Assembly: GCA_010672965.1 (NCBI GenBank)
Contig: JAAHFN010000034.1
Span: forward strand, 1-64,000
Direction: 5' to 3'
DNA from: Oscillatoria sp. SIO1A7
Lineage (GTDB): Bacteria > Cyanobacteriota > Cyanobacteriia > Cyanobacteriales > Laspinemataceae
Length of the DNA: 64,000 nucleotides
The notes beneath the pieces were generated by a model. That model was not told the origin of the DNA and did not search any database. It saw only the letters and a program-made list of their open reading frames with translations. The position numbers and the translations under genes are program-made. Shown here piece after piece: positions 5,349 through 60,741 of this stretch; the stretch's first letter is position 1, and every line of letters starts with the position of its first letter.

Positions 5349-5502
5349 TATAGCGTTTCTCAAATAAGTGTAATGAACAATCGCCTTGGAGGGCTTAGGG
5401 GCGACAGCATCCCCAAGACAATCTCGGCGACCCGAACGACAACCCCCGTAGTGGGATGCGCGGGCCCCAGATAACCTCACATTAATTTTAGAAATGCTAT
5501 AT
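5349..5502. mobile_element. MITE family A copy, orientation 1 (TATAGCGTTTCTCAAAT inverted repeats around a GGGGCGACAGCATCCCC...GGGATGCG hairpin core)
   Basis: Shares its termini and core with the copies at 14996-15148, 23371-23507 and 42151-42303. Confidence 0.6.
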
Positions 5503-8645: not shown

Positions 8646-10754
8646 ATGATGAAAGAAAAATTTAACCGAAAGAGCAAAGAAGGAACCTATAGACTTCGGA
8701 GGCGGCGCAAAAGCCCGATCTCTACAGCGAGAAAAGACGATCTCTCTCGCCGATTGCGCTGGGCTTATCTGCGCAGAAGGTCCGGTGGAATAGGCATATC
8801 CCCTGGGGGAGAAGGGTCCGTTACAGGTCTTGGGCTATTGGAGAATCAAGAAGAATCCACAACCGAGGCTAAGGGTCCCAAGAAGCAGCCCAAAAATGTG
8901 GGTCGAGTAGTGGGGCAATGTCTAAGATTTATTTGGAAATGGCCCCTTTGGTGGTTTGCTCTGCTAGCGATTTGCAGTGGGGTTGGCGCGATCGCCTTGC
9001 AAAGATTGCTGACTATGCCGCCACAGACTGACTGCGAAACCCTCTCTGCAAATTCTCTGGATGGGGACCATCTCTATTGCGCCAATGCAGCCGCCAAGTC
9101 AGGGGAATTGGAAAAACTGATAGCGGCTATAGATTTGGTAGAAGGGTGGCCGGAGGACCACCCCCTGCGCGGCCAGGCACAAAGCCTGATGGGAGAATGG
9201 GCGAAAATGATGGTGGATATCGCCGATAAGAAATTTAATGGAGGCGATCGCTCTGAGGCAATGGAGATTGTGGCTAAAATCCCGGAGAAATCCCCCGGTT
9301 ACGAGCGCTTAATGAATAAGGTGGCAACCTGGGAAGGAGATTGGGATCGAGGTAAAGATATCTACAACGACGCCCAATATGCTTTGAAAAATAAGTCTTG
9401 GTCAGAAGCAAACAAGCACGCTAGGGAACTGTTGCTAGTCGATAATGCCTACTGGCGCACGGTGCGCTACGGTAAGCTCAAAGAGCAAATCGATAGGGAA
9501 GAGAAAGCTTGGAAAAAGCTGGAAAGCGCCCGGTATTATGCCAGTTGGGGCAGGGTGGAAGATCTGGTGTACTCCATCGACGAAGCCAGACAAATAGACC
9601 CTAGCACCTATACTAAAGCAGAGGCAGAAAAAGATGTGACAAAATGGAGCCAGCAATTGCTCGATATGGCTCAAAAACAATGGAAAAATGGAGATATGAA
9701 AAAAGCGATCGCCGCTGCAAATTGGATTCCTCCAGACTTGTCCATCCAGAGCGAGGCGGAAAACTTGAAGACTGTAATGCAGGCGGTGGCGCTGGTCGAG
9801 AATGATTCTCCTACGGCAGATCCGACGGAACGCCTATTTTCTTTTTGGCAAGCCCAAGCTTCTCTGGGCAAAATCGACTCGGAAAGCCAGATATACGAGC
9901 AAGCCCAAGAGTTGCAGGCTTCCTGGGAGGAACAAATACAAGACCTAGTACAGCTGCAAATGGCTAATTTAACTGCTAGTTTTGCTCACCCGGTCGCTCT
10001 GAAATTGGCTATAGACCAAGCAGAGATGATAGAGATGGATAGACCCAGACGGATTCAGGCTCAAACTCTTATTGCTGAATGGCGCAAGGAAATTCAAAAA
10101 ATTGAAGACCGCAGCTATTTGGCGCAAGCAAGAAGCTTGGCCTCCTCGGAGACAATTGAAGGGTATAAGGCGGCGATCGCTCTTGCTAGTAAGGTGGAGC
10201 TGGGACGACCTCTGCGCATAGAAGGGCAAACTCTAATAGCCGAATGGAAAAAACGGGTAGAAACAATAGAAGATAAACCTATCTTGGAGAAAGCTCGCTC
10301 CCTGGCAAAAGAAGGCAATCTCAAAGAGGCTGTGGAGACTGCAGAAAAGATTGGCCCCGGTCGGGCGCTGTACGAAGAGGCTGGCAATGAAATCTCTAAG
10401 TGGGTTGCCAAAATCCAAATTGCTGAGGATAGACCAATTCTAGACGAAGCCACATCCCTGGCAGCTCGAGGATTGCTGCAAGATGCTATAGACACTGCTT
10501 ATCAGATTGGCTCCGGTCGCGCTCTGTATAGCGAAGCTCAAGATGCAATCTACCGCTGGGAGGCACAACTTAGTGCAATCCGGGCTCGGGAAGCTGCTGC
10601 CCAACGTGCTGCTTACGAACGGCAAACAACAACTTACTATCAACAGTCGGAACCCTTCTATACCCCACCGGAACCGGTCTATACTCCACCCGCACCAGCT
10701 TATATTCCACCACCCGCTTATATTGCACCACCCGCTTATACTCCCCCAGAATAG
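8646..10754 (+). CDS. Repeat-containing membrane-anchored protein with a proline-rich C-terminal tail
   Basis: Basic N-terminus, one TM helix (WPLWWFALLAICSGVGAIAL), four roughly 35-aa internal repeats (RP.RI.AQTLIAEW....I..IEDR..L..A.SLA; GRALYEEA...), and an (A/P)PAYxPP tail. Confidence 0.55.
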   Translation: MMKEKFNRKSKEGTYRLRRRRKSPISTARKDDLSRRLRWAYLRRRSGGIGISPGGEGSVTGLGLLENQEESTTEAKGPKKQPKNVGRVVGQCLRFIWKWPLWWFALLAICSGVGAIALQRLLTMPPQTDCETLSANSLDGDHLYCANAAAKSGELEKLIAAIDLVEGWPEDHPLRGQAQSLMGEWAKMMVDIADKKFNGGDRSEAMEIVAKIPEKSPGYERLMNKVATWEGDWDRGKDIYNDAQYALKNKSWSEANKHARELLLVDNAYWRTVRYGKLKEQIDREEKAWKKLESARYYASWGRVEDLVYSIDEARQIDPSTYTKAEAEKDVTKWSQQLLDMAQKQWKNGDMKKAIAAANWIPPDLSIQSEAENLKTVMQAVALVENDSPTADPTERLFSFWQAQASLGKIDSESQIYEQAQELQASWEEQIQDLVQLQMANLTASFAHPVALKLAIDQAEMIEMDRPRRIQAQTLIAEWRKEIQKIEDRSYLAQARSLASSETIEGYKAAIALASKVELGRPLRIEGQTLIAEWKKRVETIEDKPILEKARSLAKEGNLKEAVETAEKIGPGRALYEEAGNEISKWVAKIQIAEDRPILDEATSLAARGLLQDAIDTAYQIGSGRALYSEAQDAIYRWEAQLSAIRAREAAAQRAAYERQTTTYYQQSEPFYTPPEPVYTPPAPAYIPPPAYIAPPAYTPPE

Positions 10755-14995: not shown

Positions 14996-15148
14996 TATAG
15001 CGGGTCTCAAATTGATGTGAGGTGTCTGGGGCGAAGCATCCCAATATGAGAGTTGCCATTAGGAGCCCCGAGATTGTCGCTCGTGATGCTGTCGCCCCTA
15101 CGTTTCTAGGACTCGATACTTTATTACACTTATTTGAGAAACGCTATA
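14996..15148. mobile_element. MITE family A copy, orientation 2, immediately after the sseA stop
   Basis: TATAGCGGGTCTCAAAT...GGGGCGAAGCATCCC...GATGCTGTCGCCCCTAC...ATTTGAGAAACGCTATA. Confidence 0.65.
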
Positions 15149-15163
15149 TTTTTGACTAGATAA

Positions 15164-26552: not shown

Positions 26553-26859
26553 AGTGCGTACCTGTGGATGCCTCTGCTCTCTATTCTAATCCAACCTAGC
26601 TAGAAACAGAGGTTTTTGAATTTTAAACCCCGGGTTTTTATAGATCGCAAATGATTGAAGTCCAGAAACCCGGTTTTTCCAAAAAAACCGGGTTTCTCAC
26701 ATATCGCAAATAATTTAGGATACGATTGATATCCAGAAACCCGGTTTTTCCAGAAACCCGGTTTCTCACTGCCAATGCCCAATACCCAATGCCCAATGCC
26801 CAAGGTTTCTCACTGCCAATGCCCAATGCCCAATGCCCAATTTCCCCATGCTCCTACCC

Positions 26860-27480
26860 TTCCTACCTCCCCGATTCCCGAACCAACTGTCCGCTAATCC
26901 GCTACAAATCCGTTCCCAATCCGCTGCCAACCATCCGTTCCCAATCCGCTGCCAACCATCCGCTAATCCGCTACATCCGCTACAAATCCGCTGCCACTCA
27001 TCCGCTAATCCGCTACAAATCCGTTCCCAATCCGCTGCCAACCATCCGCTACATCCGCTACAAATCCGCTGCCAACAATCCGCTAATCCGCTACATCCGC
27101 TACAAATCCGCTGCCACTCATCCGCTAATCCGCTACAAATCCGCTGCCACTCATCCGCTAATCCGCTACAAATCCGCTGCAAACCATCCGCTACATCCGC
27201 TACAAATCCGCTGCAAACCATCCGCTACATCCGCTACAAATCCGCTGCCACTCATCCGCCACATCCGCTACAAATCCGCTGCCAACCATCCGTTACAAAT
27301 CCGCTGCCAACCATCCGCTACATTCGTTACAAATCCGCTGCAAACCATCCGCCACATCCGCTACAAATCCGCTGCCAACCATCCGTTACAAATCCGCTGC
27401 AAACCATCCGCTACATCCGTTACCAATCCGCTGCCACTCATCCGCTACAAATCCGTTCCCAACCATCCGCTGCCAAAAAC
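26860..27480. repeat. Degenerate minisatellite of about 620 bp built from ATCCGCT-based 9-14 bp units
   Basis: Continuous repetition with no unique spacers; it generates the artefactual ORFs 26726-27513 on both strands. Confidence 0.85.
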
Positions 27481-28494
27481 TTAAACCTTTCCCTTTTCCA
27501 GGGGATAGCTTAGGGGCGAACCTGCCGACCATTCCCACATCGAGCCCGGATAATTTTTGGCTTTGTATCCTAAATCCGCCAGCACCGAGGTCAACCAAGC
27601 AGAGCGAACCCCTCCGGTGCAATAAATCGCGATTTCTGTAGTTGGGGTTATTCCTTTTTGCTCTAGCTTGGCGACAATCTCCTCGCGGGAAAGCAGCAAG
27701 CCATTTTTGGCCAATAGCTCTTTATAGTAAAGATGAATAGCTCCAGGAATGCGACCGCCCCGACTTTCTCCGTAGGGGGTTTTGCCAAAATACTCGCGCT
27801 TTTCCCGAGCGTCGATAATAACTAAATTATTTTTTGCCAAACTGGCTCGCAGCTCCTCGCGCCCAATCTGCCAATTTCCCACCCGCTTGACCAGAAAATC
27901 GCCCCTCTTTGGCGGCGAGGTAGCTTTGTTTGTAGCTTGGATGGGGGCGATGGCGGTCAGGCGGGACGCCCGACCTACGCGATCGCCTCCATCTATTATC
28001 ACCGCTTTTTTATGGCCGAGGCTGCGCAACATCCAGACTATTCGCCCCTCTTCTCCCCATCCTTTCGCTGTATCTCCAAAAACCAGTACGGGCACTTCCT
28101 GAAAAACGCCGATCGCCTGAAGTTTTTCAGTTAAAAGGAGATCGTCTTCCAGCAGTTTTCCTCGCCAGGGTTGTTTGGGCTGAGAAAATTCCTTCCAACT
28201 AACCGGAATAGCTCCGGGCACCGGGCGCAACCGCTGCGATCGGCGCGGGCGAGCATCTATAAGAGTCGCTCCTGCGGCGAGCAATTCATCGGCGCGATCG
28301 GCACCAACTACCCATTGGTTTTCTAAGTTTTGTACTCCCGAGCCCTTAAGGCTAAATTCAGAAACAGGAATGGCAACCGGGTGAGCTGAGTTTCTAGAAT
28401 AATGGGCGATTGTAGCGGCAATAGCCAATCCTGCGGCGACTAAACTAAGCGCCACAAAAGGAGCGATCGTTTTTAATTTCCAAAGATTGGACAT
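27481..28494 (-). CDS. Membrane-anchored rhodanese-family sulfurtransferase (two rhodanese domains)
   Basis: N-terminal TM helix; catalytic loop CTGGVRSA; second inactive rhodanese domain. Confidence 0.8.
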   Translation of the reverse strand: MSNLWKLKTIAPFVALSLVAAGLAIAATIAHYSRNSAHPVAIPVSEFSLKGSGVQNLENQWVVGADRADELLAAGATLIDARPRRSQRLRPVPGAIPVSWKEFSQPKQPWRGKLLEDDLLLTEKLQAIGVFQEVPVLVFGDTAKGWGEEGRIVWMLRSLGHKKAVIIDGGDRVGRASRLTAIAPIQATNKATSPPKRGDFLVKRVGNWQIGREELRASLAKNNLVIIDAREKREYFGKTPYGESRGGRIPGAIHLYYKELLAKNGLLLSREEIVAKLEQKGITPTTEIAIYCTGGVRSAWLTSVLADLGYKAKNYPGSMWEWSAGSPLSYPLEKGKV

Positions 28495-28507
28495 TTATTT
28501 TTTTAGC

Positions 28508-29284
28508 CTACAGATCGTCAAGATTAATTCCTTGTCGCCGCAGTATTTCTTCTAGTGCCTGTACCCGAGCGATCGCCTCACTAGCTTGCTCTTGGGCTTG
28601 TTGTTTTTCCTCCTGGGTCTGTTGTAATTGCTCCTGAAGCTGTTCTTTTTCCTCCTGGGCCAGTTGTTTTTCTGCCTGAGCCAGTTGTTTTTCCGCCTGG
28701 GCCTCTCGTACTTGCTGCTTTAACTCCACAGAGGTTAAAAAGCGCTCCCCCTCCGGGTCATATAGCTGCAGAGATTTCTCTGTCATCTCGAACCGTATTC
28801 CCAAAAGCGGAGATATCCAGCCATTCATTTGCTCTATGGCCTTCAACCTTCCTCCCTCTCTTTGATATCCCGTCAACTTTAATCTATCTGGGTCGTAGAT
28901 ATAATATTCTTCTACCCCGTGACTCTGATAGAATCGCAGTTTATCCGACATCTCAGAGGAGGTATTGCTTGGAGACAGGATTTCAAACGCTACCTGGGGA
29001 GCAATGTCCTCTTCTAGCCATTGCTTATACGAGCCTCGCCTTCCCTTCGGCCGCCCAAATGCTACCATCACGTCCGGCGCTTGGCACTTTCTTGAACCTT
29101 CTGTTGGATACCAGAGCAAATCCCCGGCTATAAATACGTTGGCAACCGCAGCAAATATAATTTCTAAGTTTTCCTTGATTATTACGATCCATTTATACTG
29201 TTCTGTATTGTCTGACATTGGCTTGCCGTCGCTGTCTGGATAGACTATCTCTGGTTTTTGGTTTGCTTCTAGTTGTTGTACCAT
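28508..29284 (-). CDS. Uma2-family (DUF820) PD-(D/E)XK endonuclease, copy 1
   Basis: PDVMVAF...APQVAFEILSPSNTSSEMSDKLRFYQSHGVEEYYIYDP Uma2 core; C-terminal Q/E/K coiled-coil tail. Confidence 0.8.
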   Translation of the reverse strand: MVQQLEANQKPEIVYPDSDGKPMSDNTEQYKWIVIIKENLEIIFAAVANVFIAGDLLWYPTEGSRKCQAPDVMVAFGRPKGRRGSYKQWLEEDIAPQVAFEILSPSNTSSEMSDKLRFYQSHGVEEYYIYDPDRLKLTGYQREGGRLKAIEQMNGWISPLLGIRFEMTEKSLQLYDPEGERFLTSVELKQQVREAQAEKQLAQAEKQLAQEEKEQLQEQLQQTQEEKQQAQEQASEAIARVQALEEILRRQGINLDDL

Positions 29285-29487
29285 AGATTTTGATTCCTTT
29301 GCTATTGGTCAACATAAATAGATATTACCATTTTTTTTCGCGTTGCTGCGTTCAATGAATCTGCGATTGTAGCGATCGCGTAAGCATTTCCATAGGAAAA
29401 TCGCTCCTTTTGCGGCTGCTAAACATTCGCACCGCAAAAGGAGCGATATCTTTAAAATTCCAGAGATTGGACATTTATTTTTTTAGC

Positions 29488-30306
29488 CTACAGCTCCTCA
29501 AGATTAATTCCTTGTCGCCGCAGCATTTCTTCTAGTGCTTGTATCCTGGATATGGCCTCAGTGGCTTGCTCCTGGGTCTGTTGTAATTGCTCCTGAAGCT
29601 GTTGGGCCTGCTCCTCTGCTACAGTCGCTCTTTCCTGGGCTTGTTGTTTTTCCTCCTGAGCCTGTTGTTTTTCTGCCTGGGCCTGTTGTTTTTCCGCCCG
29701 AGCCTGTTGGGCTTGCTCCTCCGCTGCGATCGCTCGTTCCTCTAATTCCACAGAGGTTAAAAAGCGTTGCCCGTTTGGGCGATATAGCTCCAGAGATCCC
29801 TTTGTCATCTCGAACCGTATTCCCAAAAGCGGAGATATCCAACCATTCATTTGCTCTATGGCCTTCAACCTTCCTCCCTCTCTTTGATATCCCGTCAACT
29901 TTAATCTATCTGGGTCGTAGATGTAATACTCTTCTACCCCGTGAGCTTGATAGAATCGCAGTTTATCCGACATCTCAGAGGAGGTATTGCTTGGAGACAG
30001 GATTTCAAACGCTACCTGGGGAGCAATGTCCTCTTCCAGCCATTGCTTATACGAGCCTCGCCTTCCCTTTGGCCGCCCAAATGCTACCATCACGTCCGGC
30101 GCTTGGCACTTTCTTGAACCTTCTGTTGGATACCAGAGCAAATCCCCGGCTATAAATACGTTGGCAACCGCAGCAAATATAATTTCTAAGTTTTCCTTGA
30201 TTATTACGATCCATTTATATTGTTCTGTATTGTCTGACATTGGCTTGCCGTCGCTGTCTGGATAGACTATCTCTGGTTTTTGGTTTGCTTCTAGTTGTTG
30301 TACCAT
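29488..30306 (-). CDS. Uma2-family (DUF820) PD-(D/E)XK endonuclease, copy 2 (diverged C-terminal coiled coil)
   Basis: Identical to copy 1 over the N-terminal roughly 170 aa; the tail has a different number and sequence of QAQ/EKQ repeats. Confidence 0.8.
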   Translation of the reverse strand: MVQQLEANQKPEIVYPDSDGKPMSDNTEQYKWIVIIKENLEIIFAAVANVFIAGDLLWYPTEGSRKCQAPDVMVAFGRPKGRRGSYKQWLEEDIAPQVAFEILSPSNTSSEMSDKLRFYQAHGVEEYYIYDPDRLKLTGYQREGGRLKAIEQMNGWISPLLGIRFEMTKGSLELYRPNGQRFLTSVELEERAIAAEEQAQQARAEKQQAQAEKQQAQEEKQQAQERATVAEEQAQQLQEQLQQTQEQATEAISRIQALEEMLRRQGINLEEL

Positions 30307-30310
30307 AGAT

Positions 30311-30921
30311 TTAGATCCCTTTGCTATTGGTCAACATAAATAGATAATACCGTCTTTTTTTCTTCAAAGTTTTGACGCAATAGGAGTAACTGCGATCGTA
30401 TTGAAATGGAGTCGCATATCCTGTTGTATCTGCAATGCTAATAATATCTGCGCCCGCTCGTGCAGCAGCACTTGATACTTCAATAACCCGTTCCATTGAG
30501 GTGCGTGTCGTGTCTTCTGGTGTATAGCGAATCAACAGGTTTGGATTGGTTGCTAAAGCATAGCGGATAACTTCTACAACTTTCTCTATTGCACTTGCAA
30601 AAGTAATTTGGTAGTCTTGCTCTAAACGGTGCTTGGCAACACTAAAGAAAATTCCCAGAAAATCTACTCCACAATCTAATGCTTTTTTAACGTGTTCGAT
30701 GCGACAAAGACAGTGAGCGCCAATCTTAGCATTCAATTGAGCCTTAGCAACTAAGGCGATTGCCTCACAAATCTCAGGGCTAACGACAGGATTTCCTACT
30801 TCAATGATATCGACACCAATTCGATCTAGATACCTAGCAATTGATAACTTAATTTCAGGCTTAAAGTAAACGCCATTTGCTCTCCCTCTCTCAAAGTCGA
30901 ATCAAGAATCTGAACCATTTC
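30311..30921 (-). pseudogene. LeuA/NifV/CimA-family (HMGL-like pyruvate carboxyltransferase) gene remnant: A-run frameshift near 30880 and C-terminal truncation near 30360
   Basis: RBS then MVQILDSTLREGEQ (DxxLRDGEQ motif), a frame change, then NGVYFKPEIKLSIARYLDRIGVDIIEVGNPVVSPEICEAIALVAKAQLNAKIGAHC...ADTTGYATPFQ; it ends in unrelated residues where the Uma2 duplication begins. Confidence 0.6.
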
Positions 30922-31258
30922 GCTACCTAATCTCCTTTAATTGTACTCGCAAATGTGCTAAGCTATTACGCATTTAAATCCGCGACCCATATCGCGACGC
31001 GACGCAACCAACAAGAGCTAGCACGCAAGGGATAGGTCCCTTTTTCCCAATCTAAATGCGCGACAGCTTACCTTATTACCTTAAGTTATTAATTAAGGGG
31101 TCTAACGCAAGGGTTAGGAATGAGGATTAAACAAGATATTCTTACCAGAAGCCATAAAGTCCTGTCAGCGAGGGAGTTTCAGGCAACTTGACAAGTTATT
31201 AAATCCTCATTCTTTACTGGCCTCATTTTTTCCTAGTTTTGCCCCGTATTGACCCAAA

Positions 31259-32242
31259 CTAACCCAAAATTTTCTCCAGTACCAATTGGGGAGAAATATC
31301 TGCCATTTTGCCAGTTGGGGATTTGAGGCCGATAAATTTATCTGCTGACGGCAACAATTTTGTGGGATCGGTCGGGCCAAACAAAGCAACAGTATAAACT
31401 TGTACCGCTACAGCTAGGTGCATGGGAGCGCTATCGGTACAGACCATAAGATTGGCACCAGCGATCGCAGCAGCTAATTTACCCACATCCGGCGGCGATA
31501 TAATTTTTATCTCCGGAGAGGAGGCGACAATCTTGCTCGTCAGTTTCTTATCTTCTGGTCCAGATATCAAGACTATTGGCAGTTGAGGCTGACGCTCTTG
31601 CAACTGTTGAATAATCTTCTGCCATTTTTCCGCCGGATAGATCTTGTCTATTCCTTTGGCTGCGGCCAGCTTGCTAGAACCTCCGTGAATGATAATGTAG
31701 CCGCTATCTTGAATTCCGAGCTTTTGCCGTTCGGTCTCCGCCCACTTGAGATCCTCTTTTAGCAAAGTGACCCCTAATTCCGGGCAGGGGCTAGCAATAC
31801 CAAAGCCCCCGAGTAGGTCGTGGTACATGGCCGCAGCATACTGCTCTGTTTTAAGAGGAATCGGGTTTGTGAGTAATGGGTTTTTGCTATTGGCGGCGAC
31901 ATAACCAATGCGGGTGGGGATGCCAGCAAGCCAGAGAAGGAATCCTATACCCTTATTAGTTCCTAGAGACATGGCCGCATCATATTGACGATCGCGAAGG
32001 TTGCCTAGCAAATTTCCCCAATCCGCCAAACCATTGCGGTCTTTATAATCAAAAACTAGGGTATTGAGAGATTTGTCGTGGAAGTGCTTGCAAGCCCGAT
32101 AGGCTCCTCTCGATCGAGGCTCGACAACTACATCAATCTGGGCTTGGGGATAATACCGCTTGATGTCGTCTAATGTAGGGAAGAATAGGAGTTGATCGCC
32201 AATTCCGCCGGGAACAAGGGCCAATATTTGCATCTCACTCAA
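31259..32242 (-). CDS. Glycosyltransferase family 9 (ADP-heptose:LPS heptosyltransferase-like)
   Basis: GT9 fold motifs (ILALVPGGIGDQLLFFP, LISGPEDKKL, CTDSAPMHLAVAV). Confidence 0.8.
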   Translation of the reverse strand: MSEMQILALVPGGIGDQLLFFPTLDDIKRYYPQAQIDVVVEPRSRGAYRACKHFHDKSLNTLVFDYKDRNGLADWGNLLGNLRDRQYDAAMSLGTNKGIGFLLWLAGIPTRIGYVAANSKNPLLTNPIPLKTEQYAAAMYHDLLGGFGIASPCPELGVTLLKEDLKWAETERQKLGIQDSGYIIIHGGSSKLAAAKGIDKIYPAEKWQKIIQQLQERQPQLPIVLISGPEDKKLTSKIVASSPEIKIISPPDVGKLAAAIAGANLMVCTDSAPMHLAVAVQVYTVALFGPTDPTKLLPSADKFIGLKSPTGKMADISPQLVLEKILG

Positions 32243-32330
32243 TCCAGGAATCTTATCGGTTTCATTTTAGGAGAAGATACCCTTAATCCGATTGCTGATT
32301 TTCAATCTCTTTTTTCTGAGGGTTCTAAGA

Positions 32331-33023
32331 GTGCATTTATTGATTCCGGCCGCTGGGATGGGGCGGCGCATGGGTAGCAACCGTAATAAATTACTCCTGA
32401 CTTTGCTGGGGCAGCCTTTAATTGCCTGGACTTTGCAAGCGGCCGAGGCGTCAGCAGAAATTACCTGGATTGGCATTATCGGGCAAGAGTCCGACGAGCC
32501 AGAGTTCCAGGCGATCGCCGGTAAGCTCTCTATATCTAAGCCAGTCAAGTTGATTCGGGGAGGGGATACTCGCCAGGAGTCCGTCTATAACGGATTGCAG
32601 GCTCTTCCTGACTCTGCAGATCGAGTTTTGATCCACGATGGCGCTCGCTGTTTGGTTACTCCAGACTTGCTGGATAGGTGCGCTACCGCTCTGGGCCAAT
32701 GTGTCGGTCTTATTGCTGGGGTGCCCGTCAAGGATACGATTAAAGTAGTTGACGATAGCGGGATCGTCCAGGATACTCCCGAGCGAAGCCGTTTGTGGGC
32801 AGCCCAAACCCCCCAGGGATTTGAGGTTCCGGTTCTCAAGCAATGTCACGAACGAGGTCGCCAAAACGGCTGGCAAGTTACAGATGATGCTGCTTTGTTG
32901 GAAAAATGTTCTTTGCCAGTGCGGGTTGTACCAGGGGAGGAGACAAATCTCAAGGTCACGACCCCCGGGGATTTGGCGATCGCCGAGCTTATCCTGAGCC
33001 AGCGTTGCGATTTGAAGCAATAA
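32331..33023 (+). CDS. ispD: 2-C-methyl-D-erythritol 4-phosphate cytidylyltransferase
   Basis: LLIPAAGMGRRMG...NKLLLTLLGQPLIAWTL...GGDTRQESVYNGL is the IspD signature; GTG start at 32331 inferred. Confidence 0.85.
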   Translation: MHLLIPAAGMGRRMGSNRNKLLLTLLGQPLIAWTLQAAEASAEITWIGIIGQESDEPEFQAIAGKLSISKPVKLIRGGDTRQESVYNGLQALPDSADRVLIHDGARCLVTPDLLDRCATALGQCVGLIAGVPVKDTIKVVDDSGIVQDTPERSRLWAAQTPQGFEVPVLKQCHERGRQNGWQVTDDAALLEKCSLPVRVVPGEETNLKVTTPGDLAIAELILSQRCDLKQ

Positions 33024-33026
33024 TTC

Positions 33027-33455
33027 TTATTCTTCTGCTTCAAACAGCCATTTTTTGACTTTCTGCAAGCCCGGCCAATCGGGTTTTCTGTTCAGACCGT
33101 CGGCGATATTTTCTTTTACTTCATCTCTTAATTCATCTGCGGCTATTATTAGCTGCAATGCCATATCCACATGGGGGCGAACTCCTTTGCGGCCGCTCTC
33201 TATCATAGTTACCGCTAGGTTGACTCGGGCTTGGGCGTCTTGGGGATTGAGCTTGACAGCTTTATGCGCAAATTTATAAGCCTTGTTTGGTTTGTTTTCT
33301 AGGAGATATAGCCAAGCTAGAGAAGTCAACGCATTGCTATTTTTAGGGGCGCGATCGCACAGTTCCTCGAACAAAGGAATTAGACTACTCGCTTCTTCCC
33401 CCGCACGGTAGCGTTCCAGACCTTTAGTAAAAAGATCGTCAACCGTTTCAGCCAT
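33027..33455 (-). CDS. Tetratricopeptide-repeat protein
   Basis: TPR-like helical repeats (ALTSLAWLYLLENKPNKAYKFAHKAVKLNPQDAQARVNLAV). Confidence 0.6.
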   Translation of the reverse strand: MAETVDDLFTKGLERYRAGEEASSLIPLFEELCDRAPKNSNALTSLAWLYLLENKPNKAYKFAHKAVKLNPQDAQARVNLAVTMIESGRKGVRPHVDMALQLIIAADELRDEVKENIADGLNRKPDWPGLQKVKKWLFEAEE

Positions 33456-33661
33456 AAAAGATAGTATCTGTAATTAGTAATGTAACGGCAGAATTATATC
33501 ATAATAGGGTGTGGGGTGTAGGGTGTGGGGTGTAGGGGCGGGGAGTTCTGGAGAGGGTGGGGAGGTTTGGCAGATGGGGTAGAAGATTTTTTTAGTTCTT
33601 CCCACACTGACTACGCATACCCCTACACCCTACACCCCACACCCTACACCCTAATTTTTAA

Positions 33662-38251: not shown

Positions 38252-38409
38252 TGGGCATTGGGCCCCTACGCCCCGGAGGGCGGGCTACGCCTACGACTTG
38301 CCTCGGGATAAAATTGGGCATTGGGCATTGGGCATTGGGCATTGGGCAGGGGGTCTTACAAGGGTATGTTTTTTAGATTAGGCATTCTTGAGAGGTATCG
38401 ATTGAGGAC

Positions 38410-38646
38410 GTAGGGGCGACAGCATTCCCGAGACAGCTTTTGCAAATAGATCAAAAATATTGTATTGGAATGCTTCGCCCCAGAAACCGTAGGGGCGACA
38501 GCATTCCCGAGACAGCTTTTGCAAATAGATCAAAAATATTGCATTGGAATGCTTCGCCCCAGAAACCGTAGGGGCGACAGCATTCCCGAGACAGCTTTTG
38601 CAAATAGATCAAAAATATTGTATTGGAATGCTTCGCCCCAGAAACC
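38410..38646. repeat. Three tandem 79-bp copies of the MITE family A hairpin core (GTAGGGGCGACAGCATTCCCGAGACAG...TTGGAATGCTTCGCCCCAGAAACC)
   Basis: Three near-identical units with no spacers, so not a CRISPR. Confidence 0.85.
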
Positions 38647-38735
38647 TGTGCAGGAAGGAGGATTATTAATTATAAAATCTGAATTGATACAACTCTCAAT
38701 GCCCAATGCCCAATGCCCAATGCCCCATATTATAT

Positions 38736-42150: not shown

Positions 42151-42303
42151 TATAGCATTTCTCAAATTGATGTGAGGTTATCTGGGGCGAAGCATCCCTA
42201 TAGGGAAATTCCCGTTTGGAGTGCCGAGATAGTCTTGGGGATGCTGTCGCCCCTACGCCCCTCAACCCGATCCGTTCATTACACTTATTTGAGAAACGCT
42301 ATA
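42151..42303. mobile_element. MITE family A copy, orientation 2, in the promoter region of the NACHT gene
   Basis: TATAGCATTTCTCAAATTGATGTGAGG...GGGGCGAAGCATCCC...GGGGATGCTGTCGCCCCTAC...ATTTGAGAAACGCTATA. Confidence 0.65.
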
Positions 42304-42519
42304 TTCAAAAATCAAATAGCCCTCGATTACTAGCTAGTTCTTCGGCAAAACTCAGAAAAACTTGACGGCGAGTCGCATTGAGGAATACGCTCGCCGTTGA
42401 TTGATATGGGTTAGGAGTGGCGTTCGGGGAGTTGAGGAACGGAAGGGTTGGGGAAGAGGGAGATGCCTTCCATCTCCTCATACTTCCGTCACCCTGATTT
42501 CCTTGCTCTATTTCAACTA

Positions 42520-59941: not shown

Positions 59942-60249
59942 GGAGTTCGGAGTTGCTAAAAGGAGTTGCCCGTGGAAGAACGAGGAAAGCTGTTGGGACG
60001 TGCTTACAGCTCCTTTGACCTCGCGTCCGCTTCTTCTAGCTTAACGTGGATTTTTCTTCTCGGGGGGGTGCATTTCAATTTTGTAATGGGATAGGAAAGC
60101 GATGTGGCTAGAGGTCCTTATAAGGGGACAAGGGGACAAGGGGCAGGGGGCAGGGGGCAGGGGGCTTGCAGAGGGCTTGGGGACAAGGGGACAAGGGGAC
60201 AAGGGGACAATGTTAGGGGCCATTAAATGGTCCGCTTTTTAGATTTGGC

Positions 60250-60560
60250 GTAGGGGCGACAGCATTCCCGAAACAGTCTTTGCTCATAGAGAAAACTTTG
60301 TACTGGAATGCTTCGCCCTAGAAACCCATGCAGCCGACTGATTGCCCTCTGGGGGATAGGACTCAGGAGGAGCAGCGGGGAGCAGTAGATCTCCCAAGCC
60401 CCCTGCCCCCAAGCCCCCCTGCTTTCCTCGGGGTATGTTTTTTATAATTTCCCTTTTTGGAGTTGCCGGCAAGCGGCATAAATGTCTGGGGCGAAGCATT
60501 CCAATACAATAATTTCCTTTAAGAAAAAAGTCTGTCTCGGGAATGCTATCGCCCCTACGC
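60250..60560. repeat. Inverted pair of MITE family A 79-bp core units (60250-60326 forward, 60485-60560 reverse) around a G/C-rich spacer
   Basis: GTAGGGGCGACAGCATTCCCGAAACAG...GGAATGCTTCGCCCTAGAAACC and its reverse complement. Confidence 0.7.
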
Positions 60561-60741
60561 CCTCAAGGGTACCCCTCAAAAATGCCAAATCTAAAAAACA
60601 TACCCTTGCTCCCAAGCCCCCTGCCCAATGCCCGATGCCCAATGCCCGATGCCCAATGACCAATGTCGGGCTCTTGTGCTATATTGAAAGATATGCTATT
60701 ATTAACGGTTGCCGTTCAAAAACCGCAAATATTCCCAATAT

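Follow-up and report, generated by a model that had tools for sequence, protein, structure and literature searches.

A tandem pair of Uma2 genes in Oscillatoria sp. SIO1A7, probably formed by a microhomology-mediated segmental duplication

In the cyanobacterium Oscillatoria sp. SIO1A7, two genes of the Uma2 endonuclease family stand head to tail between an intact rhodanese (sulfurtransferase) gene and a broken gene of the LeuA type, and the start of the rhodanese gene is found a second time between them. The arrangement raises the question of how such a pair arises: did a Uma2 gene copy and insert itself as a mobile unit, as the initial annotation proposed, or did a resident gene duplicate in place? 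We examined a window of 64,000 nucleotides (positions 1 to 64,000 of contig JAAHFN010000034.1, assembly GCA_010672965.1), which comes from a short-read metagenome-assembled genome (MAG). The reading that we consider likely is that the pair is resident and was formed by one microhomology-mediated segmental duplication of ~1 kb, followed by recombination between the copies, repeat slippage and formation of a hairpin, and that an independent deletion fused a LeuA-like fragment to it.

The repeat, its genes and its relatives

Comparison of the region with itself by blastn aligns 28432-29339 with 29411-30362 (954 columns, 88.5% identical, E = 0), with a start-to-start spacing of 980-1022 bp between the copies. 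This dot-plot-type check, together with Pfam, confirms two direct repeats of ~980 bp that each encode a Uma2 protein, as had been annotated from the sequence. Both Uma2 open reading frames (ORFs) are intact, and the Uma2 profile (PF05685) matches residues 49-157 with scores of 66.8 and 68.1 bits (cut-off 27). The rhodanese, Uma2-A and Uma2-B proteins of the window are identical to NER37407.1, NER37408.1 and NER37409.1, all encoded on one 80,659-bp contig of the MAG, and NCBI names both of the latter Uma2 family endonuclease. All genes lie on the minus strand, in the transcription order GT9 (32242 to 31259), a 340-bp spacer, a LeuA/HMGL-like fragment (LeuA'), Uma2-B, the dead rhodanese start, Uma2-A and the intact rhodanese gene. 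The features are as follows.

27481-28494, minus strand: intact rhodanese/sulfurtransferase gene, 337 aa (NER37407.1); Pfam Rhodanese 75 bits; 84% amino acid identity to the ortholog at locus L081
28508-29284, minus strand: Uma2-A, the downstream copy, 258 aa (NER37408.1); C-terminal haplotype type I (YDPEGERF...KQQVREAQAEK), as in single-copy L081
28589-28704, no strand assigned: coiled-coil part of Uma2-A, with 5.5 tandem copies of a 21-nt (heptad) repeat
29285-29339, minus strand: leader of copy A, starting with the A-run GAAAAAAAATGG; TTGACC...TAAATC upstream of the ATG
29340-29362, minus strand: putative diverged remnant of the ancestral Uma2 upstream flank (about -53 to -83), flanked by the dead rhodanese stub and leader A
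29363-29474, minus strand: dead copy of the rhodanese 5' end, with its ATG at 29474; ends in CGCTACAATCGC (29374-29363), which equals 28417-28406 of the real rhodanese gene
29400-29447, minus strand: perfect 16-nt inverted repeat in the dead stub, arms ATCGCTCCTTTTGCGG and CCGCAAAAGGAGCGAT, followed by TTTT; seen as an inverted self-match by blastn
29488-30306, minus strand: Uma2-B, the upstream copy, 272 aa (NER37409.1); C-terminal haplotype type II (YRPNGQRF...EERAIAAEEQAQQ), as in P0004, P0292 and L086d
29634-29709, no strand assigned: coiled-coil part of Uma2-B, with 3.6 tandem copies of a 21-nt (heptad) repeat
30307-30363, minus strand: leader of copy B; homology to copy A, L081 and L082 begins at the A-run 30363-30355
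30356-30916, minus strand: LeuA/HMGL-like pseudogene; frameshift near 30882-30866; profile match stops at position 185/260; ends VKTLKKK at the A-run
31259-32242, minus strand: GT9 heptosyltransferase-family gene, at whose stop (31259) a block syntenic with L087 and L088 at 95.6% DNA identity ends

The two Uma2 genes differ at 8 of their first 168 codons, 7 of the changes being synonymous and 1 non-synonymous (S121A), so that the ~170 identical codons first reported are not quite identical; the reported difference between the C-terminal parts holds, in both length and sequence. All 54 alignment columns that are invariant across 49 homologs are kept in both proteins. With their intact ORFs and the 7:1 ratio of synonymous to non-synonymous changes, Uma2-A and Uma2-B are probably both functional. 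An AlphaFold2 model of Uma2-B (mean predicted local distance difference test score 76.5) contains an alpha/beta nuclease-like domain and one long helix, residues 185-264. Against the PDB, the seven best Foldseek matches of the model are all Uma2/DUF820 structures (9y1l, 6okh, 1wdj, 3ot2) at probability 1.00; the template modeling scores are just 0.45-0.52 (target-normalized), and the N-terminal part of the model is of low confidence. On this model the proteins are predicted to adopt the PD-(D/E)XK restriction-endonuclease-like fold, resembling TT1808 (1wdj) and Ava_3926 (3ot2). They do not form a type II toxin-antitoxin system, as neither Uma2-A nor Uma2-B has beside it a small ORF in which Pfam recognizes an antitoxin domain; the PemK modules near Uma2 paralogs in L081 and L082 are separate genes.

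The state before the duplication is shown by L081 (ENA sample ERZ23491627, HARO18-1), an orthologous locus at ~86% DNA identity in which one Uma2 gene directly abuts the rhodanese gene. Synteny with the window runs from 52 bp upstream of Uma2 through the rhodanese gene and an HTH_17 gene to a gene for an 894-aa vault protein. Upstream of Uma2, L081 carries unrelated genes that are not found elsewhere in the window, and its upstream flank contains ...TCGCCGATTCGG... The sequence comparison thus shows the single-copy, ancestral-type state, flank / Uma2 / rhodanese, with the Uma2 stop beside the rhodanese ATG. The leader sequence of copy A is common to copy B, L081, L082 and L086. A search of genome contigs with the rhodanese protein returned 80 loci, the best 59% identical and none syntenic, and gave no empty site.

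The duplicated state is found a second time in L086, a 1,341-bp contig from another sample (ERZ27264165), whose organism is ~95.6% identical to that of the window in housekeeping genes (L088). It reads, in order, a Uma2 3' end, a dead rhodanese start without its ATG, the hairpin and inserted stretch, the leader, and a second Uma2 gene. The joints of the two contigs are 5-15% diverged and share derived indels. Since the same joint was assembled independently with shared derived changes, the tandem joint is real, which bears out the view of the initial annotation that the repeat is no assembly artifact. These sequences date the duplication to the interval between the divergence of the L081 lineage and the later separation of the window and L086 organisms.

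The joint, the dead stub and exchange between the copies

The extent of the duplicated segment can be read from the joint, which in L086 has the sequence ...GCGATCGCTACAATCGCCGATTGGGGGCAGCTTAGCCAAAAAAATGG. Its left half, the 12-mer CGCTACAATCGC, is nt 78-89 of the rhodanese gene (window 28417-28406), and its right half, TCGCCGATT..GG..GCAGCTT, matches the L081 flank ~83 bp upstream of the Uma2 ATG. The L086 flank piece TCGCCGATTGGGGGCAGCTT matches the L081 upstream flank over 20 nt, a score reached by 0 of 1000 shuffles. The two parental sequences overlap by a 5-nt microhomology, TCGCC (rhodanese ...CTACAATCGCC, flank TCGCCGATT...). The duplication thus spanned everything between about -83 of Uma2 and about +89 of the rhodanese gene. 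A joint of this kind, which is itself observed, is what illegitimate recombination or replication slippage would leave, the mechanism being suggested by the joint. An alternative assignment, in which the rhodanese gene continues through the 23 nt that separate the 12-mer from the A-run, was dropped because L086 shows that these 23 nt originate in the ancestral upstream flank. A dead copy of the rhodanese start had been noted from the beginning, at a length of ~50 bp; the copy is there, but it is longer, comprising nt 1-89 and an insertion (29474 to 29363), so that about the first 89 nt of the gene, whose intact start lies at 28494, were duplicated together with Uma2.

The stretch inserted in the dead stub is also present in L086, and the stub has become a hairpin. 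In the window its stem (29447-29432 / 29415-29400) is perfect over 16 bp, or 16-19 bp in all, and is followed by UUUUCC. The predicted RNA fold has an energy of -40.2 kcal/mol (z = -6.3); the L086 equivalent, with a slightly less perfect stem, has z = -4.9, and the two functional rhodanese starts have z = -1.8 and -2.1. The functional rhodanese 5' end has only an imperfect palindrome, and an arm of the dead stub was perfected by about six clustered substitutions in a tract of 12-16 nt. Quasi-palindrome (template-switch) mutation is a known mechanism that perfects imperfect inverted repeats, and the substitutions in the stub resemble its products in that all of them raise complementarity to the opposite arm; selection as a terminator could give the same result. 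The hairpin may thus reflect templated quasi-palindrome correction, selection as a terminator or insulator between the Uma2 genes, or both. An argument from compensatory changes fails, as the differences between the window and L086 stems are one wobble and one mismatch, with no double change. The dead start also leaves a 40-codon ORF (MSNLWNFKDIAPFAV...; 29352-29474, minus strand) that keeps the ATG of the gene and the context upstream of it; as L086 no longer has this ATG, the ORF is probably not functional. Scans of metagenome contigs with the junction hairpin and with the Uma2 leader gave no matches.

Once formed, the copies went on exchanging sequence. Over codons 1-100, Uma2-A and Uma2-B are 99.0% identical, and each is ~97% identical to a copy in L086 (L086d); over codons 101-168 the values are 97% and 93-94%. 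The 5' 560 bp of the copies are ~99% identical. As the duplication is older than the split of the window and L086 organisms (~3-7% divergence), these 560 bp must have been homogenized within the window lineage. Codons 169-190, in turn, come in two haplotypes with a mutual identity of 75-79%. Uma2-A, the upstream L086 copy, L081, L082, L083, L084 and L085 carry type I; Uma2-B, the downstream L086 copy, L089 and, at the protein level, P0003 and P0004 carry type II. The positions of the haplotypes are thus swapped between the window and L086. Furthermore, L082 and L089 are mutual closest relatives over codons 1-100 (94.7%), yet their haplotypes differ. The swap and this mosaic argue for exchange of segments not only from one tandem copy to the other but also with unlinked paralogs. 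The length difference between the C-terminal parts is explained by slippage of the 21-nt heptad repeats (5.5 versus 3.6 copies). The suggestion that Uma2 units are recombinogenic is upheld as far as the copies recombine, the segment-wise identities revealing mosaicism and concerted evolution.

The LeuA-like pseudogene

Upstream of copy B, the LeuA-like ORF begins at 30916 and is frameshifted near 30882-30866, where homologs read EQTPGVYF and 1 or 4 nt have been lost. It matches the HMGL-like profile (PF00682) at positions 2-185 of 260 only. In BLASTP against the best homolog (66% identity), the fragment ends VKTLKKK opposite VKTLKEE, within the A-run at 30365-30355; the homolog continues with an HCHND motif (EVHCHNDRGLA) that is absent from the window. 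A complete LeuA, NifV or CimA has a full HMGL-like barrel with the HxH metal-binding motif and a C-terminal domain, which this fragment does not. From its sequence, the LeuA-like gene is a decayed pseudogene cut inside the TIM barrel. The initial annotation had the gene truncated after the barrel, near 30360, by the distal end of the duplication: its end point agrees with ours, but the cut falls within the barrel. The GC content of the fragment is 41.5%, as compared with 47.3% for the whole window. No LeuA 3' half was found downstream of the array or elsewhere in the window, and the search for a close intact relative yielded a best match of only 67% identity.

The closest relatives of LeuA' (P0124, 240 aa on a 23-kb Cuspidothrix contig; P0126, 175 aa on a 22.8-kb contig; P0144, P0146, P0151 and P0153; 50-67% identity) are mostly short ORFs on long contigs with varied end points, and the subfamily may often consist of pseudogene fragments in cyanobacteria. 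A 22-nt inverted repeat, 82% complementary with a 61-nt spacer, lies between GT9 and LeuA' (31113-31134 / 31196-31217).

In the relatives L087 and L088, which share 95.6% identity with the window over TPR-IspD-GT9, synteny ends precisely at the GT9 stop, and there is no LeuA' within 844 bp. The stop at 31259 is thus the far boundary of the LeuA' block, and the spacer between GT9 and LeuA' belongs to the block absent from these relatives. On this comparison LeuA' is an orphan block with a synteny breakpoint on either side. The near breakpoint bears on whether the duplication did the cutting. The ancestral flank from -53 to -83 is kept weakly in copy A and clearly in L086, and is missing in copy B, from which it follows that the junction of LeuA' with copy B at the A-run most likely arose separately, through a deletion or rearrangement. 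The proposal that the duplication itself truncated LeuA thus gives way to such an event, most simply one at A-rich microhomology that would have taken away the LeuA 3' half together with the upstream flank that copy B once had. The loss of synteny at the GT9 stop, the unrelated genes upstream of Uma2 in L081, the failure to find a close intact homolog and the lower GC content of the fragment all agree with this reading.

History, alternative readings and setting

Taken together, these results can be arranged into a history. The ancestor would have had a flank, a single Uma2 gene and the rhodanese gene, as L081 does. In the common ancestor of the window and L086 organisms, the segment bounded by about -83 of Uma2 and nt ~89 of the rhodanese gene would have been duplicated head to tail, with the joint at TCGCC. 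The dead rhodanese stub would then have gained clustered changes and an insertion, giving the 16-bp perfect hairpin and a short T-run, while the copies kept exchanging, with homogenization of the 5' 560 bp, swapping of the C-terminal haplotypes and expansion and contraction of the 21-nt repeats. Through a separate deletion or rearrangement, one end of which lay in the A-run at -52 of copy B, Uma2-B would have been fused to the middle of the LeuA-like gene, leaving a frameshifted fragment with no counterpart at this position in relatives. Microhomology-mediated tandem segmental duplication and concerted evolution, by gene conversion or unequal crossing-over, are general processes of bacterial genomes. 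The locus shares with them head-to-tail copies, a 5-nt microhomology joint, a truncated bystander fragment, partial near-identity despite an older origin, and swapped segments. Nothing essential differs, except that some donors in the exchange appear to be unlinked paralogs (type II in L089 and P0004).

Several observations weigh against this history. Copy B, L081 and L082 all have their homology boundaries near one and the same A-run, which may be a preferred recombination site. The flank remnant in the window (29340-29362) is too diverged for confident assignment, its match to the L081 flank being reached by 29 of 500 shuffles, and the -83 boundary rests on L086. A simple terminator scan did not call the hairpin, whose loop exceeds 8 nt and whose tail is short. 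The copy number (at least 2) and the order of the genes rest on a short-read MAG and on a 1.3-kb contig with an aberrant 3' end. Finally, L086 holds no flank beyond its upstream copy; the order of events, duplication first and LeuA' fusion later, is reconstructed rather than observed.

It is possible, but unlikely, that the pair is kept by selection as a two-gene module, in which the same nuclease domain with differing coiled-coil tails would yield heteromeric partners, or specificity variants of a solo toxin or defense nuclease, with the hairpin separating their expression; how the pair came about would then be incidental. The intact ORFs and the 7:1 ratio of changes are in line with this, as are the persistence of two discrete C-terminal haplotypes across genomes and loci and the retention of the pair in two lineages with the hairpin conserved. 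The same MAG holds, on another contig, what consecutive accessions suggest is a second adjacent pair (NER35421.1/NER35422.1, that is, P0003/P0004), 81% and 80% identical to Uma2-B and also with unequal tails (258 and 244 aa), and the family mostly forms paralog cassettes (Makarova 2009, PMC2701414). However, single-copy L081 and the singletons at other loci indicate that a pair is not required. A related pair in L090 (sample WANG22-1; 1-1349; L091 is listed with it), with a ~430-bp spacer and a leader split by a ~165-bp palindromic insertion, has a premature TAG stop at codon 125 of its downstream copy. The swapped positions of the haplotypes also speak against a fixed arrangement.

Of the readings that give Uma2 an active role, the first, that of a selfish mobile cassette, we consider quite improbable. 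Here a homing-type endonuclease gene or non-canonical transposable unit would have copied itself, dragged the rhodanese start along and inserted into LeuA. Like free-standing homing endonuclease genes, insertion sequences (IS) and miniature inverted-repeat transposable elements (MITEs), Uma2 is a small nuclease-encoding unit with many copies per genome and short conserved flanks, and it belongs to a PD-(D/E)XK nuclease fold family. Units that are 80-87% identical in DNA occur at unrelated loci, as single genes in HARO18-1 (L082, L083, L084, L089) and in L090, with homology only near the gene; synteny with relatives breaks directly upstream of Uma2; and the homology of copy B, L081 and L082 stops near the A-run where LeuA' is cut. 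Mobile-element contexts have been described for the family in gamma-proteobacteria (Steczkiewicz 2012). Unlike such elements, however, Uma2 has no fixed termini, terminal inverted repeats, target-site duplications or transposase: neither kind of repeat was found at the ends of the repeat unit, and Uma2 is the sole ORF of the unit, which accordingly is no IS or MITE. The joint between the copies links rhodanese coding sequence to flank at about -83 through TCGCC and is not a fixed element end, and the LeuA 3' half is not found downstream of the array. Among the paralogs, homology is confined to the gene, a leader of varying length (-17 to -66; about -100 for L082 versus L090) and sometimes ~15 nt past the stop (an A-run and TAAAT). 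A discrete cassette end at the A-run, at which all left boundaries would coincide, was considered and dropped in view of these differing leader lengths and of the L086 flank. The comparison of sequences points to small segments copied or converted between loci, and paralog homology defines no element ends.

The positions of Uma2 also argue against mobility. The gene lies at the same place in the orthologous loci that can be compared (window versus L081, at ~86% DNA identity, and L083 versus L085), and neither of these two comparisons, which involve few genomes, revealed an empty site for the unit. This agrees with the report that the context of Uma2 is well conserved in cyanobacteria (Steczkiewicz 2012). 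The footprint of Uma2 mobility that the initial annotation saw here is therefore not borne out, given the microhomology joint, the lack of terminal inverted repeats and target-site duplications, boundaries that range from -17 to -66 and conserved positions.

The second reading with an active role, to which we likewise give little credence, is that the Uma2 nuclease makes its own locus recombinogenic, for example by occasional double-strand breaks near the gene. Such self-promoted recombination would account for the tandem duplication, the gene conversion with linked and unlinked paralogs, the coincidence of three independent homology boundaries and the LeuA' fusion at the A-run, and the synteny breaks upstream. 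If true, the expansion of Uma2 in cyanobacteria would be self-promoted, a new selfish behavior without transposition.

Least probable is a short-read metagenome assembly artifact, in which a repeat was mis-joined or two strain variants were placed end to end: the MAG source, the near-identical 5' 560 bp with difference-free stretches of up to ~150 bp, hard for short-read assemblers, and the aberrant end of the L086 contig inside the coiled-coil repeat would suit it, but the joint has sequence that is unique in the window (the diverged stub, which has an insertion and a hairpin of its own), this joint, 5-15% diverged, was also recovered from another sample by another assembler, and the differing C-terminal haplotypes of the copies also occur in other genomes.

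The surroundings contain further repeats and genes. Directly downstream of the rhodanese gene lies a short tandem repeat array of ~580 bp (26890-27473, also 26772-26841) with nested periods of 8, 11, 25, 34 and 59 nt and the unit ATCCGCTACAAATCCGCTGCCAAC. The gap here is ~760 bp in the window (27479 to 26721) and ~230 bp in L081 (11805-12037), which indicates that the array expanded in the window. A dispersed repeat of ~150 bp, possibly a MITE, occurs in the window at no fewer than four sites, that is, at least 4 (5349-5502, 14996-15150, 23370-23510 and 42151-42305), and in intergenic regions of relatives (L082 1308-1447 and 11944-12088; L083 6779-6896; L085 4417-4559; L088 2935-3080); it adjoins Uma2 in L083 and L085, but on one side of the gene in the former and on the other in the latter. 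A repeat family of ~80 bp forms short tandem clusters at 38348-38652 and 60236-60562 and is also found in L087 (4508-4601) and L088 (2714-2807), just downstream of GT9 where synteny with the window ends. Hairpin-type repeats (GAAACCCGGTTTTTT...AAAACCGGGTTTC) are intergenic in the window (26661-26698, 20653-20692) and occur in L090 (199-311) and upstream of Uma2 in L083 and L085. The motif GCGATCGC (HIP1), typical of cyanobacteria, has 83 copies in the window. An Rfam scan of 25000-33500 gave as its sole match a sub-threshold plant miRNA inside a repeat, taken as chance, and a promoter scan found fewer promoter-like sites than in shuffles. The 894-aa ORF at 16799-19483 (plus strand) has an L081 ortholog (88% DNA identity) with Pfam Vault repeats and MVP_shoulder, and is a cyanobacterial homolog of the major vault protein. 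In L045, L046 and L054 (Scytonema/Tolypothrix; Nostocales), a distant Uma2 gene (26-28% identity; ~9080-9795, minus strand) lies divergently beside the rhodanese ortholog at 10001, an adjacency that is probably due to chance, given the abundance of the family. In L070 (Kastovskya), a Uma2 gene that is 52-54% identical lies ~4 kb upstream.

Adjacent Uma2 genes have been known for some time: Makarova, Wolf & Koonin (2009; PMC2701414) counted 114 COG4636-COG4636 neighbor pairs and described the family as a likely solo toxin that mostly forms paralog cassettes. Like those cassettes, the window has two adjacent Uma2 genes on the same strand in a cyanobacterium, with no recognizable antitoxin; the neighbors of the pair are the rhodanese gene and the HMGL-like pseudogene. 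Unlike them, its birth can be traced base by base, through a microhomology joint, a fragment of a neighbor and a single-copy outgroup, and its proteins carry a C-terminal coiled-coil helix of ~80 residues outside the Pfam domain. The pair thus adds a recent, clearly resolved example to a known arrangement, and gives no evidence of a new kind of mobility or a new mechanism. For annotation, the LeuA-like ORF is to be corrected to a pseudogene. The locus also illustrates how a dead gene stub can turn into a hairpin. Its importance is modest, and lies in offering a worked case for the growth of the Uma2 family in cyanobacteria, with a single-copy outgroup, a two-copy ingroup in two lineages, the joint, and concerted evolution between the copies.

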